From Minisyncoccota bacterium (GTDB taxonomy: Bacteria > Patescibacteriota > Minisyncoccia > Phycocordibacterales > UBA1006), in NCBI GenBank assembly GCA_028697455.1, contig JAQVEZ010000001.1, forward strand, positions 67,902 to 131,901: 64,000 nucleotides of DNA. The letters are read 5' to 3'. Under the pieces are notes generated by a model. The model did not search any database. It worked only from the letters and a program-made list of their open reading frames with translations, and was not told where the DNA came from. Position numbers and translations under genes: made by a program. Below are positions 4,485 through 61,159 of this stretch, piece after piece. The stretch's first letter is position 1. Every line of letters starts with the position of its first letter.

Positions 4485-4605
4485 AAACCGTTTTTAACAA
4501 CGGTAATATAAAATGTAAAAGAACAACTGAAAGACATTATAAAGAAAGGCTTTAATTTTGCAAGTACTTATTTTACTCATTGGAGATTTTTGTTACCCTA
4601 AGAAT

Positions 4606-5274
4606 ATGACAGCCCAACAAAAAGAAGAAAGACAAAAGAGAATCAAAAAAATGCTCCCTATTCTAAGGAAAATGTTTCCAAGCCCACAATCAGAACTTAA
4701 TTACGGGAATGATTTTGAGTTTCTTGTTGCGGTAATTCTCTCTGCTCAATGTACCGATAAAAGGGTAAATATTGTCACCAAAACTCTTTTCAAGAAATAC
4801 AAAACAATCTCTGATTATGCACATGCGGATTTGGAAACGTTTGAACAAGATATTTTTTCAACAGGATTTTATAAAAACAAAGCAAAGAACATTATTGCAA
4901 CAGCAAAGATTGTCCAAGATGAGCACAAGGGGAAGCTTCCTCGCAATATCGCATCTCTCCAAAAACTCCCAGGGGTAGGGAGAAAAACCGCAAATGTTAT
5001 TCTTTCAAATTTATACGATATTCACGAAGGAATTGCTGTTGATACTCATGTTATGCGTATTGCTCAAAAATTTGACCTTGTTGACCCACCTTATACTCCT
5101 GTATCAATAGAAAAAGATCTCATGGAAATTATCCCAAAAAAAGAATGGGGGAACATAAATCACTATTTTGTTCTCTATGGTCGCTATTATGCACCTGCAC
5201 ATGCAAAGGAAGTTAATGATGAATTAACAAGGCTTTATCCACCCGCTCGTTTTAAATTGAAAAGTCTAGCTTAA
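4606..5274 (+). CDS. nth: endonuclease III (DNA glycosylase/AP lyase)
   Basis: ELNYGNDFEFLVAVILSAQCTDKRVN ... LPGVGRKTANVIL ... HhH-GPD family. The start is set at MTAQQKE. Confidence 0.9.
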   Translation: MTAQQKEERQKRIKKMLPILRKMFPSPQSELNYGNDFEFLVAVILSAQCTDKRVNIVTKTLFKKYKTISDYAHADLETFEQDIFSTGFYKNKAKNIIATAKIVQDEHKGKLPRNIASLQKLPGVGRKTANVILSNLYDIHEGIAVDTHVMRIAQKFDLVDPPYTPVSIEKDLMEIIPKKEWGNINHYFVLYGRYYAPAHAKEVNDELTRLYPPARFKLKSLA

Positions 5275-23276: not shown

Positions 23277-24167
23277 TTAATCTTCAATGAAAAAATCTTC
23301 ATCAATTTCTTTTATAGAAAAAGTTTCCTTAATTTGAACTCCTAAATTATATTTAATCATTAGGTCTACTAATTTATCACCATTGATTAATATAATTTTA
23401 TGATTTCTTGCATCCCTTACTTTTTCTAAGGCTGCCTTATCAAAATCTGAAGTAGTAACAAAAATTCCTTTTGAGACATCACCAGACATTGCTCCAATAA
23501 AATTACGGATTTCTTTTTCTCCCACAAGGTTTGCTGTATATCTTTTTGCCTGAGTATAAATTCTCTCAACCCCTAAAGCATCTTGATTGATAATCCCATC
23601 AATTCCACCATCCCCAGATTTTTTTGTTTCTTGAAAATCTCCATAACCCATTTTTTGAAAAAGTTTTAAAATTATCTTTTCAAAATAATATGGATTTGAA
23701 ACTTTTAATTTTTCCAATAATTCAATTTTTAAATTCTCTTCAATATCAGCATATCCAACTTCAATCATTTCTTGAGATGACAAATCAGTGACTTTTATAT
23801 TTTCGTTATTTTCAGATTTTTTATTTTTTTGATATTTTTGAAAATCGAAATCATTTTGTATATATTCTTTTGTTAAATTTATCCCCTCCTTAAGAATATT
23901 TAATCCTTTATCGGTAATTTTTACATATCCTCTTTCTGGATAATCAACCATTTTTGCTACACGTAATTTTGATTTTGCGAAATGAATACGATTAAGTAAT
24001 GTATTGTCACCATTTTTTGGATTAACTCTATTTAAAACTTCTTCTGGCAAATGTGAATAAAAAGTATCTCTTACTTTTTCTTCAAGGTCTTTTCTGTGTA
24101 AAGTTTCTCCATTACTCAAAATCTTAAGTACTGGGATATATATTTCGTGGTATTTTGGCATTTCCAT
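23277..24167 (-). CDS. mrr: Mrr-like type IV (modification-dependent) restriction endonuclease
   Basis: An Mrr_N winged helix (PKYHEIYIPVLKIL...NRIHFAKSKL). An Mrr_cat domain (YYFEKIILKLFQKMGY...SGDGGIDGII...YTQAKRY...KGIFVTTSDF...LVDLMIKYNLGV) that aligns closely with E. coli Mrr. The track ORF begins at a TTG codon inside the T-box terminator, so the first ATG (MEMPKYHEI) is preferred. Confidence 0.85.
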   Translation of the reverse strand: MEMPKYHEIYIPVLKILSNGETLHRKDLEEKVRDTFYSHLPEEVLNRVNPKNGDNTLLNRIHFAKSKLRVAKMVDYPERGYVKITDKGLNILKEGINLTKEYIQNDFDFQKYQKNKKSENNENIKVTDLSSQEMIEVGYADIEENLKIELLEKLKVSNPYYFEKIILKLFQKMGYGDFQETKKSGDGGIDGIINQDALGVERIYTQAKRYTANLVGEKEIRNFIGAMSGDVSKGIFVTTSDFDKAALEKVRDARNHKIILINGDKLVDLMIKYNLGVQIKETFSIKEIDEDFFIED

Positions 24168-24189
24168 AATATTTTTATATTCTATTTGC

Positions 24190-24395
24190 AAACAAAAAAT
24201 CGTCCGCAATCGATTAACTTATAATCTCTTGCAGGGACGATTTTGGATAACCGCGGTGCCACCCTGATTCCTGATGTGTATCAAGCGCTCTTTATTATTA
24301 GTCCAAAAATATCCTTAGACTTAATTTTTCACCTCAGCTGTGTCAAAGCGTCGTTGGTACATAAAATATAACAAAAATAAGCAAAAAAGAAAAGA
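24190..24395 (-). promoter_or_regulatory. T-box riboswitch leader (likely Asp-specific) upstream of mrr-aspS
   Basis: On the minus strand, AGGGUGGCACCGCGG at 24251-24265 matches the T-box consensus AGGGUGGNACCGCG exactly. The variable position C would pair with G73 of tRNA-Asp. A terminator helix AAAATCGTCC(CTGCAA)...(TTGC)GGACGATTTT with a U-tract follows at 24196-24244. Upstream there is a short stem I-like helix containing GGACUAA (GAC is an Asp codon). Confidence 0.55.
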
Positions 24396-51983: not shown

Positions 51984-52065
51984 GCCGGAGTGGCGGAATT
52001 GGTAGACGCGTACGACTCAAAATCGTATATCTTTGGGTGTGTGGGTTCAAGTCCCACCTCCGGCA
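51984..52065 (+). tRNA. tRNA-Leu(CAA)
   Basis: Acceptor GCCGGAG/CUCCGGC, anticodon loop CUCAAAA, long variable arm, T-loop UUCAAGU. CCA is not encoded. Confidence 0.9.
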
Positions 52066-52127
52066 CGAGTATTAAAACCCAGAAAATTTGTTTTGGGTTT
52101 TAATATACGAGTAGCAAAAAGGTTGTG

Positions 52128-52316
52128 GGGCTTGAAAAAAGCGAAGCGGTATACAAGACGATCCACCAGCTGGCGGAGAGTGCTTGTCGCGAGCGGCGGG
52201 GCCCTACGAATGGGGTCGCAGTGAGTGCAGAGCACGAAACGAGACCCATGAGGGTGACCAAGTCCCACCTCCGGCACACAGCAAAACAAAAAACACTCAT
52301 TTTTGAGTGTTTTTTG
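52128..52316 (-). repeat. copy A of a two-copy GC-rich structured element (candidate sRNA or dispersed repeat), ending with a U-tract
   Basis: The 48-nt core CCCTCATGGGTCTCGTTTCGTGCTCTGCACTCACTGCGACCCCATTCG is 45/48 identical to copy B. Like copy B, it is flanked by a 5' AAAAACAC(Y)CA...UG(R)GUGUUUU hairpin and a 3' GC-rich region followed by TTTTTT. GC content is far above the local average. Confidence 0.45.
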
Positions 52317-52317
52317 T

Positions 52318-52986
52318 TTATTCGTTTTCTCCTTCTTTATCTTCTGAAGTAACTTCCTCATGCGCTCGAACCTCTCCTCCTGAGACAATATCATTATAGA
52401 GATAGGTAGAAGCAATTGAGATGAATGGAATAACAACGATCATACCAACGAGGGTGAGTGCTCCAATAATTGAAATAATTCCAATAAGGATCAAGAAGAA
52501 GAATATTCTCCAACGATTTCCTTTAGTTAATTTCCAAGATTTTGAAAAAGATTCCATAACTTTTGCTTTTTCATCAGCAACAAGATATTGCGTCATGTAG
52601 AGTCCGGACATCAAAATGAGTCCTGGAATAATCAAAGCAATAAACCCAAATCCAATAATAATTGCATAAACAATTCCTACAATCAAGAATGAAAAATAAA
52701 GTTTCAGACTAATATTTTCAAAAAGGTTTCTTAGGGCAATCTTCTTCCCTCGAATACGATTAAGAATCATTCTAATAAGACCGAGACTAAGAAATACTGA
52801 AAGAAGTCCTCCAATCAATTTGATAAAGAATTCAGATGCTGTGTAAAAACTTGAAGAATCAAATTTTAATTCTGTTAAAAATGCAACAATTGAAATGATA
52901 AGCCCTGCTGATAAAAAGATTTTCCAATCTTGAGTAAAAGTATCCCAAGAACGTCGAAAGATATTATTAATACTTATTTTTTTCAT
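52318..52986 (-). CDS. hypothetical polytopic membrane protein
   Basis: Four to five TM helices and an acidic C-terminal tail. Confidence 0.5.
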   Translation of the reverse strand: MKKISINNIFRRSWDTFTQDWKIFLSAGLIISIVAFLTELKFDSSSFYTASEFFIKLIGGLLSVFLSLGLIRMILNRIRGKKIALRNLFENISLKLYFSFLIVGIVYAIIIGFGFIALIIPGLILMSGLYMTQYLVADEKAKVMESFSKSWKLTKGNRWRIFFFLILIGIISIIGALTLVGMIVVIPFISIASTYLYNDIVSGGEVRAHEEVTSEDKEGENE

Positions 52987-57057: not shown

Positions 57058-57906
57058 CTACAGAGAAACAAATTCTGGATGGATAAGTTCATGGACTTCT
57101 TTCACAAGTTTCTTTGCTGTTCTCTCAGAAACTCCATAATCTTTTTCAAAATCTTTTGCTTCAAGATAATAAAGGTCTTGCACAAGAACCACATCATTGA
57201 GTGCGAGTTTTTTAAGTAATGATTGTGTCATTGAAGGAACAACGGTAACAGGATAAAGCTTTTTTTCGCGAACTATTTTTTTGAGATTAATAAATTTAGG
57301 ATAATCCCACCCCATCAACTGTAGGTCTCGGTGCTCTATATAATTGAGCGAGTTCTGAGTGAACTGAGTGTTCGTAACCATCCACATATAATACTCCCGA
57401 GTATCCCCATTGAGCTGAGCTTTTTTTCGAATATCAACAAGGCGAGCATCAGCATACATAACCTTATCGATATGTGTTTTTGTACGAAAATCATTTTTGT
57501 ATTTTGCTTCAACAAGGAAGACAACATTCCCTTTTTGAGCCATAACATCAATTTCATGTTCAACAGCCTCCCCATGGAGATACACATTTTTTTGAGAAAA
57601 ATATCCCATCTTTCTAAAAAGCTCAGAAACAAAGTGCTCGAAAAGAAATCCTGAAGGCCCCAAGGAACTTAGACCTCTCTCAAGAGAGTATAAGGCTGCA
57701 AGTTCAGGATCAATAGGTTTTAAGTATTTTCGTGTAATATTAAAAATCTTCTCAGTTGATGTTCCTGAGCTTATTTTTTCTGAGACGATATCACAAACCT
57801 GTGTTGCGAGTGATGTTGGGGCTCCAGCAGCGACAATAGAGTTACAAAGCTTTTCTGCAGAAAAAGGTTCTTGTGATCCATTTTTTTTAATGATTTTTTT
57901 ACTCAT
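57058..57906 (-). CDS. ATP-cone domain fused to a restriction-endonuclease-like PD-(D/E)xK nuclease domain
   Basis: An N-terminal ATP-cone (KIIKKNGSQEPFSAEKLCNSIVAAGA...). An Mrr_cat-like block (FLFEHFVSELFRKMGYF...HEIDVMAQKGNVVFLVEAKYK) with the D...EAK catalytic pattern. Confidence 0.7.
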   Translation of the reverse strand: MSKKIIKKNGSQEPFSAEKLCNSIVAAGAPTSLATQVCDIVSEKISSGTSTEKIFNITRKYLKPIDPELAALYSLERGLSSLGPSGFLFEHFVSELFRKMGYFSQKNVYLHGEAVEHEIDVMAQKGNVVFLVEAKYKNDFRTKTHIDKVMYADARLVDIRKKAQLNGDTREYYMWMVTNTQFTQNSLNYIEHRDLQLMGWDYPKFINLKKIVREKKLYPVTVVPSMTQSLLKKLALNDVVLVQDLYYLEAKDFEKDYGVSERTAKKLVKEVHELIHPEFVSL

Positions 57907-60570: not shown

Positions 60571-60875
60571 TTTTTAATAATTATTTAACTAAATTATATT
60601 AATAAATAATTTATTGTCAATATCATAAAGAACTAAAAAAGAACCCTTTCGGATTCTTTTTTCAGTATTTTTTACTTAAAGATTTTTTCTTTTAAATCTT
60701 CATATGAGGATATCATGTCGTATTTGATATCACCTGTATTAAGTGACTCAAATTTATTATTAAAAATCGTGATCATATTATGTTTTTTTACTAATTTTGA
60801 TAAACGTTTTCACAATATATGTAAATTGTACCAAAAAAGACAAAAAATAGAATTTTAAATTTATTTTTAAAACCT

Positions 60876-61020
60876 AAAAACACCCAATACTTCGTATTGG
60901 GTGTTTAAGGTCATATGACCCTCATGGGTCTCGTTTCGTACTCTGCACTCACTACGACCTCATTCGCTCGACCCCGCCGTCGCCTACGGACTTCGTCCGG
61001 CTTCGCAGGCGACTTTTTTC
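60876..61020 (+). repeat. copy B of the two-copy GC-rich structured element, with 3' terminator hairpin GTCGCCT...AGGCGAC plus T6
   Basis: Same architecture as copy A: a 5' hairpin ACACCCAAUA/UAUUGGGUGU, the 45/48-identical core, a GC-rich hairpin, and a U-tract. Convergent with tRNA-Gln. Confidence 0.45.
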
Positions 61021-61088
61021 GAATCCTTTCTGATCAGGTAAAGCAAAAAGCATCTCCATACTTTTGTATGAAGATGCTCTGCTTTATG

Positions 61089-61159
61089 CTGCCAGACTAG
61101 GATTCGAACCTAGATAGTCGGCGCCAGAAGCCGAAGTCCTACCATTAGACGATCTGGCA
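61089..61159 (-). tRNA. tRNA-Gln(CTG)
   Basis: U1:A72 acceptor UGCCAGA/UCUGGCA, anticodon loop UUCUGGC, T-loop UUCGAAU, discriminator G. Confidence 0.85.

Follow-up and report, generated by a model that had tools for sequence, protein, structure and literature searches.

The DNA considered here, referred to throughout as the window, is a 64-kb stretch from a Minisyncoccota bacterium (contig JAQVEZ010000001.1), an AT-rich run of housekeeping genes (GC 36.6%) whose closest named FtsX homologues are labelled 'Patescibacteria group bacterium', 'Candidatus Pacebacteria', and similar, which points to a Patescibacteria/Paceibacteria-type genome. Its most GC-rich islands (0.68 and 0.70 in 60-nt windows, exceeding the tRNA genes) are the two copies of a structured, gene-less element, one of which (copy A) lies in the 3' end of tRNA-Leu(CAA) and the other (copy B) beside tRNA-Gln(CTG); the nature of this element is the subject of the present analysis. 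The existence of two copies, put forward in an original prediction made without database searches, is borne out: the core of copy B (60918-60983, plus strand) matches copy A (52189-52255, minus strand) at 88% over 67 nt (E 2.8e-18; 62 nt at 89% by a repeat finder), and a two-block pattern taken from the core matches only at copies A and B in the window and not once in 100 shuffles.

Copy B is, as had been stated, convergent with tRNA-Gln(CTG) (61088-61159, minus strand), its target gene, the last 19 nt of which (61088-61106) form the repeated segment. The element had been placed at 60876-61020; the inserted segment instead spans about 60907-61087 and reaches the tRNA. Its far, outer boundary is the ancestral intrinsic terminator of tRNA-Gln (60878-60906, minus strand), listed by the terminator scan as a 13-bp stem followed by TTTTTAGGTTTT on the minus strand and now parted from its gene by the insert; a same-strain Logan contig stops at 60906, and a sister strain keeps this hairpin directly before the outer repeat (sister-strain data, here and below, are Logan assemblies with 93-98% nucleotide identity to the window and a 100% identical ParB). 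Next to the terminator lies the eroded outer junction (60907-60917, plus strand; AAGGTCATATG), delimited by the sister-strain alignment, followed by module M1 (60918-60983, plus strand), the GC-rich core common to copy A, with up to 68% GC. M1 contains hairpin P1 (60918-60929, plus strand; ACCC-TCAT-GGGT), hairpin P2 (60936-60957, plus strand; TCGTA and TACGA around the 12-nt loop CTCTGCACTCAC), and a possible hairpin P3 (60969-60982, plus strand; loop CCCGCC) that overlaps the foot of the next hairpin, P4; between copies A and B, two double-sided changes fall in P3 and G-U changes in P2.

Module M2 (60979-61019, plus strand) consists of P4 and a run of six T residues (T6), the stem GTCGCCT/AGGCGAC enclosing CGGAC-TTC-GTCCG and GCTTCGC. 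Read on the opposite, tRNA-sense strand, P4 becomes GTCGCCT-GCGAAGC-CGGAC GAA GTCCG-TA-GGCGAC, with two GAA triloops, and its GCGAAGC heptamer (61000-61006, minus strand) is a very stable DNA mini-hairpin motif, found again in copy A as well as in unrelated mini-inserts from other genomes. Beyond M2 comes S* (61018-61038, plus strand), an inverted, imperfect copy of the tRNA-Gln segment from the T-loop to the 3' end (TTCGAATCCTTTCTGATCAGG versus TTCGAATCCTAGTCTGGCAGC in the tRNA), set within a wider inverted match of 61018-61078 against 61049-61108 (76%). Between S* and the tRNA lies an insert-borne hairpin (61047-61080), the tip of a foldback described below, which the terminator scan lists as a terminator on both strands, in agreement with the bidirectional hairpin that had been proposed; it now serves as the terminator of tRNA-Gln, being followed on the minus strand by TTTTTGCTTT.

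Copy A is a complete insert of ~192 nt (52067-52258, minus strand) in the 3' end of tRNA-Leu(CAA) (51984-52066, plus strand), its target gene. The assertion that it occupies the 3' region of a membrane-protein gene proved mistaken, as it lies after the stop codon and terminator of that gene. On the minus strand, M1 (52258-52194) is followed by a variable hairpin region (52193-52148), by GCTTCGC (52141-52147; GCGAAGC on the plus strand), and by a T-run (52140-52135), the second module comprising a long hairpin, unlike P4 of copy B, then TTCGC, then T6. There follow S* (52136-52121, minus strand; TTCAAGCCCCACAACC versus TTCAAGTCCCACCTCC in the tRNA) and the insert's own terminator hairpin (~52102-52072, minus strand). 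At the other end of the insert, an outer direct repeat (52259-52277, plus strand; CAAGTCCCACCTCCGGCAC) that begins in the T-loop is identical over 19/19 nt to the last 19 nt of tRNA-Leu(CAA) (52048-52066), and an ancestral terminator (52284-52319) stands beyond it; the repeat copy adjoining the tRNA-Leu body is followed by the new, insert-derived terminator hairpin. Insert A has no inverted repeats at its ends, which read GTCACCCTCATGG... and ...GGGTTTTAATACTC.

The proposed terminator and promoter of copy B survive in part. The sequence GTCGCCT...AGGCGAC plus TTTTTT is indeed present on the plus strand, but at 60979-61019 rather than 60988-61019; ViennaRNA folds it, and a simple terminator scan leaves it unlisted because its 7-bp stem encloses a second small hairpin. 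TTGATA (60797-60802) and TAAAT (60822-60826) are likewise present on the plus strand, but as a promoter they are weak and go unlisted by a consensus scan because they stand 19 nt apart; moreover, they sit in a segment of ~240 nt that a sister strain lacks, and the hairpin at 60878-60906 intervenes before the element. No promoter-like site stands before copy A, and there is no room for one between the upstream gene's terminator and the element. The claim of an independent RNA of ~180 nt with its own promoter is therefore unsupported, as the promoter falls short of the consensus, is strain-specific, and is parted from the element by a terminator hairpin.

Sister strains and other Patescibacteria

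At copy A, the Logan strains are of two types: in one contig (SRR22315504) the sequence is exactly that of the window, and in at least five sister assemblies the distance between the 222-aa gene and ParB is 209 nt rather than 422 nt. In these empty sites of tRNA-Leu (L012, L014, L015, L018, and L019), the alignment gives the order gene stop, terminator hairpin, ten bases, and tRNA-Leu(CAA) 3' end, and it is at this point that the window gains ~211 nt as a clean, all-or-none unit.

At copy B, one contig of a sister strain breaks off within the element and carries before that point the ancestral terminator, AAGGTCATAT, GCTGCCCGGGTAGGATTCG, and GTCACCCTCATGGGTCTCGTTTC, in that order. Here GCTGCCCGGGTAGGATTCG is a displaced, tRNA-Gln-like 3' end (the resident tRNA-Gln reads GCTGCCAGACTAGGATTCG), with a 15/19 repeat match, and its junction with the core is that of copy A, GTGCCGGAGGTGGGACTTG|GTCACCC. 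Where the window has AAGGTCATATG, the sister strain reads AAGGTCATAT, GCTGCCCGGGTAGGATTCG, and GTCACC; relative to it, copy B of the window has lost ~21 nt, including the outer repeat, and is therefore probably no longer excisable.

Several further observations concern the surroundings of insert B. The AT-rich segment of ~240 nt at ~60640-60877, present in the window and in SRR22315504 and lacking in a sister strain, is a second strain-specific indel beside the insert; it holds a called 34-aa open reading frame (ORF; ~60672-60776, minus strand), a promoter-like site (60843-60814, minus strand), and its own terminator (60635-60662). Farther out, a perfect 12/12 sigma-70 consensus (TTGACA, 16 nt, TATAAT; 60593-60620, minus strand) of unusual quality stands upstream of a 215-aa membrane-protein gene, and a weak divergent site (9/12) occupies 60599-60626 on the plus strand. 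Six independent Logan contigs from two species (L001-L006) stop exactly at the last base of tRNA-Gln (window position 61088). The contig ends at 61088 and 60906 fit either a repeat, such as a second tRNA-Gln with the 3' half in common, or a population that varies beyond the tRNA; as the former may suffice, the breaks at 61088 were dropped as evidence.

The original prediction had recommended that the element be sought beside tRNA genes of related genomes, and such a homologue exists. Among 28 loci collected from other Patescibacteria through FtsX-tRNA-Gln synteny, L034, whose FtsX is 59% identical, bears a homologous insert at tRNA-Gln(CTG) in the same place and orientation (BLAST E 2.8e-8); a covariance model scores it at 76 bits (E 5.7e-22), but as L034 was one of the three model inputs, the independent support is the BLAST value. 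This insert has a 17-nt outer repeat and the junction G|GTCACC, as in copy A. Its M1, in the 5' half of the core, has eroded to AT-rich sequence, and its M2 is nearly unchanged: the outer stem, GGCTTCGCAGGCGAC, the T-run, and the next CGA are identical, and the inner hairpin has been swapped for another that is still paired. The tRNA T-loop differs between the window species and L034 (TTCGAATCC versus TTCGATCCC), and S* and the outer repeat each follow the local variant.

Inserts of other families share the arrangement without sharing the sequence. In L056-L058, whose FtsX and tRNA-Gln are identical to those of L034, tRNA-Gln carries two tandem inserts of ~125 and ~100 nt, each with a terminator of its own at the start and a tRNA 3' repeat of its own at the close; the arrays are followed by a terminator of the type that adjoins tRNA-Gln directly in the empty-site relatives L007, L009, and L029 (empty-type flanks were found in L033 and L036 as well). 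The layout recurs with unrelated sequence at tRNA-Gln(TTG) in L048 and at tRNA-Met and tRNA-Asp in L054, the last bearing a perfect 20-nt inverted copy of its own 3' end. In all, approximately 6 of the 44 distinct tRNA flanks examined display it, and a minimum of eight inserts, spread over five kinds of tRNA and several genomes, are uniformly 100-260 nt long, identical in internal order, and devoid of any coding trace. The common order is tRNA, own terminator, inverted copy of the tRNA T-loop-to-3'-end segment, hairpin modules (often with GCGAAGC), and outer repeat.

Some details of these genomes may be recorded alongside. The tandem inserts at 5497-5800 of L056 (found also in L057 and L058) have the motifs GGTTTCCGTCAGGTTTA and GAGTAGCGAAGCGG in common, and the DNA downstream of them is wholly unlike that of L034 despite the identical FtsX and tRNA. 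In L054, another Patescibacteria metagenome-assembled genome, the same-layout inserts at tRNA-Met and tRNA-Asp occupy 433-760 and 2446-2597, and the tRNA-Met insert measures ~230 nt, ~150 nt of which are GC-rich and contain GCGAAGC. Downstream of tRNA-Gln in L046 (5316-5500) is an island of 78% GC that contains part of the tRNA end in inverted orientation, and L028 (7071-7230) has a structured stretch of ~130 nt and, after it, an inverted copy of the tRNA-Gln 3' end but no direct repeat; both are possible further variants of the mini-insert layout.

Wider searches were largely empty. A pattern with 25 specified bases had no match in GTDB genomes, a 20-mer had none in JGI metagenomes, and the six matches of two loop blocks in the latter were all chance occurrences in GC-rich DNA. 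Three patterns gave no match in IMG/VR, distant BLAST against phage and plasmid records returned nothing resembling the element, and the sequence-only covariance model, run over 382 kb of relatives, recovered only its three input copies and a sister-strain fragment. Scans of copies A and B and of the inserts of other genomes against Rfam 15, at both gathering and permissive E-value thresholds, brought only tRNAs to the gathering threshold, the remainder being generic hairpin matches and one sub-threshold match to IS605-orfB-I. No ORF fits any insert, and full-text literature searches did not find this kind of element described.

A proposed mode of integration and competing explanations

The insert lies between the tRNA body and its original terminator, supplies an intact tRNA 3' end together with a new terminator, and leaves, on its far side, a second copy of the 19-nt tRNA 3' segment; one and the same core occurs at two tRNA genes, each time with a flanking repeat and an inverted copy specific to that tRNA. 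The inserts are the footprint of site-specific integration at tRNA genes, unusually small and without an integrase. On balance, copy B seems to be an old, partly eroded copy of a gene-less element of ~190-210 nt that integrates site-specifically into the tRNA segment from the T-loop to the 3' end, and it is probably not a free-standing small-RNA gene. Of the two interpretations originally offered, the small non-autonomous mobile repeat at tRNA-proximal sites is accordingly the one that gains support, from the location in the tRNA 3' end, the direct repeat, and the presence or absence among strains.

The inverted copy S*, the hairpin, the tRNA trailer, and the tRNA end together form one long foldback, which in copy B, as single-stranded DNA, has a folding energy of -28.9 kcal/mol (z = -8.4) and a perfect 10-bp base (TTCGAATCCT); other foldbacks give z-scores of -5.3 (L034) and -12.8 (tRNA-Asp of L054), with bases of 10-20 bp drawn from the T-loop/T-stem segment. 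With S* a constant feature, parted from the direct copy by a hairpin, a single strand can fold up as a duplex mimic of the target, and as the insert has no gene, a recombinase encoded elsewhere would have to move it. The unit would thus travel as a mini-element mobilized in trans by a host or helper recombinase, its folded strand being integrated through one strand exchange and completed by replication, which would yield exactly the order that is observed, namely tRNA (S), hairpin, S*, cargo, S. Integration by a folded single strand is known from CTX-phi (PMC3442271; PMC3089051) and from integron cassettes (PMC4792948), and such a mechanism is plausible here by analogy. The GC-rich hairpin modules (M1, and P4 with its GAA triloops and GCGAAGC on the tRNA-sense strand) may be cis-acting signals for recombination or complementary-strand synthesis; P4 with T6 would be one such module, and it may also stop transcription running towards the tRNA. 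An excised insert A would be expected to carry the circle (attP) junction ...GAGGGTGAC + CAAGTCCCACCTCCGGCAC + GAGTATTAAAACCC....

The heptamer GCGAAGC occurs on the tRNA-sense strand of five inserts (A, B, L034, the tRNA-Met insert of L054, and the second insert of L056), against a background of ~1 per 40 kb per strand in ~400 kb of these genomes. It is an unusually stable DNA mini-hairpin, reported at complementary-strand origins of single-stranded phages and among single-strand initiation signals (PMC13037366), and its presence offers a lead, rather than a demonstration, towards signals of that type. A periodicity of TTCG motifs was also considered; the motif is enriched, and regular spacing was not seen. 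More broadly, Patescibacteria may carry gene-less mini-cassettes of 100-260 nt that integrate at the tRNA T-loop/3' end as folded single strands, with an inverted copy recreating the target duplex, mini-hairpins of the GCGAAGC type acting as single-strand signals, and the recombinase supplied in trans, or else a version of this in which retargeting is RNA-guided; this generalization is tentative, and we regard it as doubtful.

A number of points weigh against integration of a small mobile unit. No recombinase was recognized among the ORFs of the window, whose N-termini were inspected by eye and ten of which, otherwise unassigned, were compared with Pfam; within the same scope, neither a Xer gene nor a dif site was identified. 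No full-length autonomous relative was found, and no circular or single-stranded form was observed. There are only two copies in the window and one true homologue elsewhere, and with the pattern scans of GTDB, JGI, and IMG/VR and the phage and plasmid BLAST empty, the case for activity and spread has few examples behind it. Only 2 nt separate the base of the foldback from the repeat edge, so that a duplex arm such as a classical two-armed tyrosine-recombinase site would have is not apparent; S* could arise instead by palindrome extension or correction around the terminator. In the sister strain, the outer repeat at B mismatches the resident tRNA acceptor stem, a point for which a simple model of a displaced original end does not account, and it resembles the end of a different tRNA-Gln. 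Finally, the empty site at A could also come from precise deletion between the 19-nt repeats, so that the polymorphism may have arisen in either direction.

Two proteins with Mrr-type restriction-endonuclease domains are encoded in the window at 23277-24209 and 57058-57906 (both minus strand), one with Mrr_N and Mrr_cat and the other with an ATP-cone and Mrr_cat. A HhH-GPD (endonuclease III-like) gene at 4558-5274 (plus strand) adjoins tRNA-Ala; endonuclease III is reported to aid the single-strand integration of CTX-phi in Vibrio (PMC3442271), and the parallel is very likely a coincidence.

Other histories would leave some of the same traces. It is unlikely that copies A and B are the att-proximal ends of two related larger islands (prophage or plasmid) that entered via an ordinary integrase and were otherwise deleted, even though integrase-borne islands classically leave direct repeats and repeat arrays of tRNA 3' ends as their footprint, sequence present in the sister strain has visibly gone from copy B, M1 is eroding in L034, and a deletion bias is plausible in Patescibacteria, whose genomes are small. 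Independent deletions would not stop at equivalent points, as at least eight inserts of equal size range and order would require; the common M1 and junction of A and B, combined with differing target-specific parts, fit a small moved unit better; and insert A is all or none (~210 nt) between strains that are 93-98% identical. A purely local rearrangement of the tRNA 3' flank, in which end duplication and palindrome extension by template switching produced independent look-alikes with no mobile element at all, is hardly credible. Quasi-palindrome extension can copy flanking sequence in inverted orientation, and S* and the tRNA trailer are parts of one long palindrome; however, the 67-nt GC-rich core, unrelated to the tRNA and 88% identical between two tRNA loci, already largely refutes this explanation, which also accounts for neither the near-identical M2 at 59% FtsX identity nor the tandem arrays of distinct inserts.

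Two further explanations assign the element a function as RNA. That it is a free-standing gene for an RNA of ~120-190 nt, read in the element sense, ending at P4 and U6, and acting in trans, with the tRNA incidental or the RNA carried as cargo, is improbable. Like the tRNAs, the element is strongly GC-rich in an AT-rich genome, its hairpin and T6 are kept across species, its fold has a z-score of -5.0, the three A/B substitutions in the P1 and P2 stems all give G-U pairs on the element-sense strand, and P3 has its two double-sided changes. Yet folding of the opposite strand is no weaker (z = -6.1), and an alternative hairpin there, GTGC-AGA-G(C/T)AC, tolerates one of the substitutions, so that the assignment of a strand from G-U wobble was set aside as ambiguous; with only three substitutions, the G-U pattern has a chance probability of ~1 in 8, and the three available sequences provide a few compensatory changes (P3 and inner P4) besides the G-U changes. 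The sub-consensus promoter lacking in the sister strain, the position of copy A directly after a strong terminator, the want of an Rfam match, and the degradation of M1 in L034 while the insert persists also argue against an sRNA gene, which would, in addition, leave the direct repeats, S*, and the empty site unaccounted for. Still less probable is an RNA-guided element in which a scaffold (M1/M2) and a target-matching segment (S* or the outer repeat) direct a recombinase or nuclease encoded elsewhere. Covariation of the kind seen here, with a conserved scaffold beside segments that change with the target (Leu versus Gln) and follow the tRNA variant of each species, is what brought bridge RNAs to light, and the best non-tRNA Rfam match, a weak full-length alignment of IS605-orfB-I over copy B on the tRNA-sense strand (60822-61085, minus strand; 19.8 bits, E 0.05), would be in keeping with such an element; this score is far below the gathering score of 94.2, and the alignment is in all likelihood noise. 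No gene for TnpB, IscB, or a DEDD recombinase was recognized among the inspected ORFs of the window or inside or beside any insert, 19-nt direct repeats and tRNA restoration are foreign to IS110 or IS200/605 insertions, no promoter is evident, and the unrelated inserts (L048, L054, and L056) have the layout and not the scaffold.

Four narrower ideas were also examined and rejected. A tRNA-like minihelix, with the outer repeat and S* as an acceptor/T-stem helix, is not maintained in its acceptor part in A, B, or L034. Single-strand transposon ends of the IS200/IS605 type are unsupported, the putative left-end hairpins of A and B being wholly different from each other and bearing no likeness to P1. 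Retro-insertion of a terminated sRNA leaves ~68 nt (S* and the terminator) between the T-run and the inner repeat, which does not correspond to a simple cDNA copy. Lastly, priming by mature tRNA, in the manner of a primer-binding site, was dismissed as the palindrome runs into the tRNA trailer and no CCA is present; the inverted copy therefore derives from DNA, not from mature tRNA.

Significance and comparison with known systems

If integration of a small gene-less unit is the correct reading, then bacteria with the smallest genomes carry site-specific mobile DNA reduced to cis-acting signals, which would provide a natural minimal substrate for finding the recombinase that acts at tRNA T-loops and for testing the use of folded single-stranded DNA. 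It would likewise account for the GC-rich 'orphan structured elements' beside tRNAs that RNA-motif screens in AT-rich genomes otherwise call sRNAs, as well as for short-read assemblies of these organisms breaking at tRNA ends. The pairing of direct and inverted target copies is a simple, searchable signature that would allow a catalogue of such inserts to be drawn up for the whole Candidate Phyla Radiation and the inserts to be employed as strain markers. Were the folded single-strand reading true, the inserts would constitute a tRNA-directed counterpart, at minimal size, of CTX-phi/IMEX or integron-cassette recombination; were the RNA-guided version true, they would represent a programmable system, retargeted from tRNA to tRNA through the target-matching segment.

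Judged by its sequence features, the element appears to belong to the tRNA-targeted integrative elements, among which its size and lack of genes would be unusual. The elements in the 2002 classification by Williams reportedly employ tyrosine integrases and cross over in the T-loop. The mini-inserts resemble tRNA-targeting prophages, ICEs, and islands, together with CIMEs, in their location at the tRNA 3' end, a repeat extending from the T-loop to the last base, a tRNA restored by the element, a displaced copy on the far side, arrays at one tRNA, and presence or absence among conspecifics. CIMEs are, however, kilobases long, whereas the mini-inserts measure 100-260 nt and are gene-less, with neither an integrase gene nor any plausible ORF inside them; furthermore, each mini-insert bears an inverted copy of its target, for which double-stranded attP sites have no need.

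The inverted copy finds its closest parallels in systems that recombine as folded single strands. In CTX-phi/IMEX, two nearby, inverted, target-like sites fold into a mimic of the target, the predicted order of hybrid site, spacer hairpin, inverted site, cargo, and hybrid site is the order seen here, and no element-encoded recombinase is needed (PMC3442271; PMC3089051); on the other hand, these phages target dif through XerCD and integrate a phage genome, whereas the mini-inserts target the tRNA T-loop/3' end and comprise ~200 nt. Integron cassettes are similarly small, sometimes ORF-less units that form tandem arrays and use an imperfect-palindrome site (attC) in folded, single-stranded form (PMC4792948), but they depend on an attI/intI context that is missing here, arrays being built up at a tRNA gene by units that each bring in a terminator. 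Of the attC R''/R' boxes (RYYYAAC/GTTRRRY), the R' consensus is not matched by the T-loop sequences GTTCGAA and GTTCAAG, and no integrase is adjacent.

Resemblances to other compact elements are more partial. Miniature inverted-repeat transposable elements and repeats of the REP/PATE type are also short, non-coding, structured, repeated, and intergenic beside terminators; nevertheless, the former have terminal inverted repeats and a short, generic duplication, whereas the mini-inserts have no such inverted repeats, duplicate 19 nt of one tRNA, and number only two in 64 kb. With the bridge RNA of IS110 and the omega RNA ends of IS200/605 elements, the mini-inserts have in common a conserved, structured scaffold and target-matching segments that differ between copies; they differ in having no adjacent recombinase or nuclease gene and no significant family match, in their long direct repeats, and in a transcription that is, at most, predicted.

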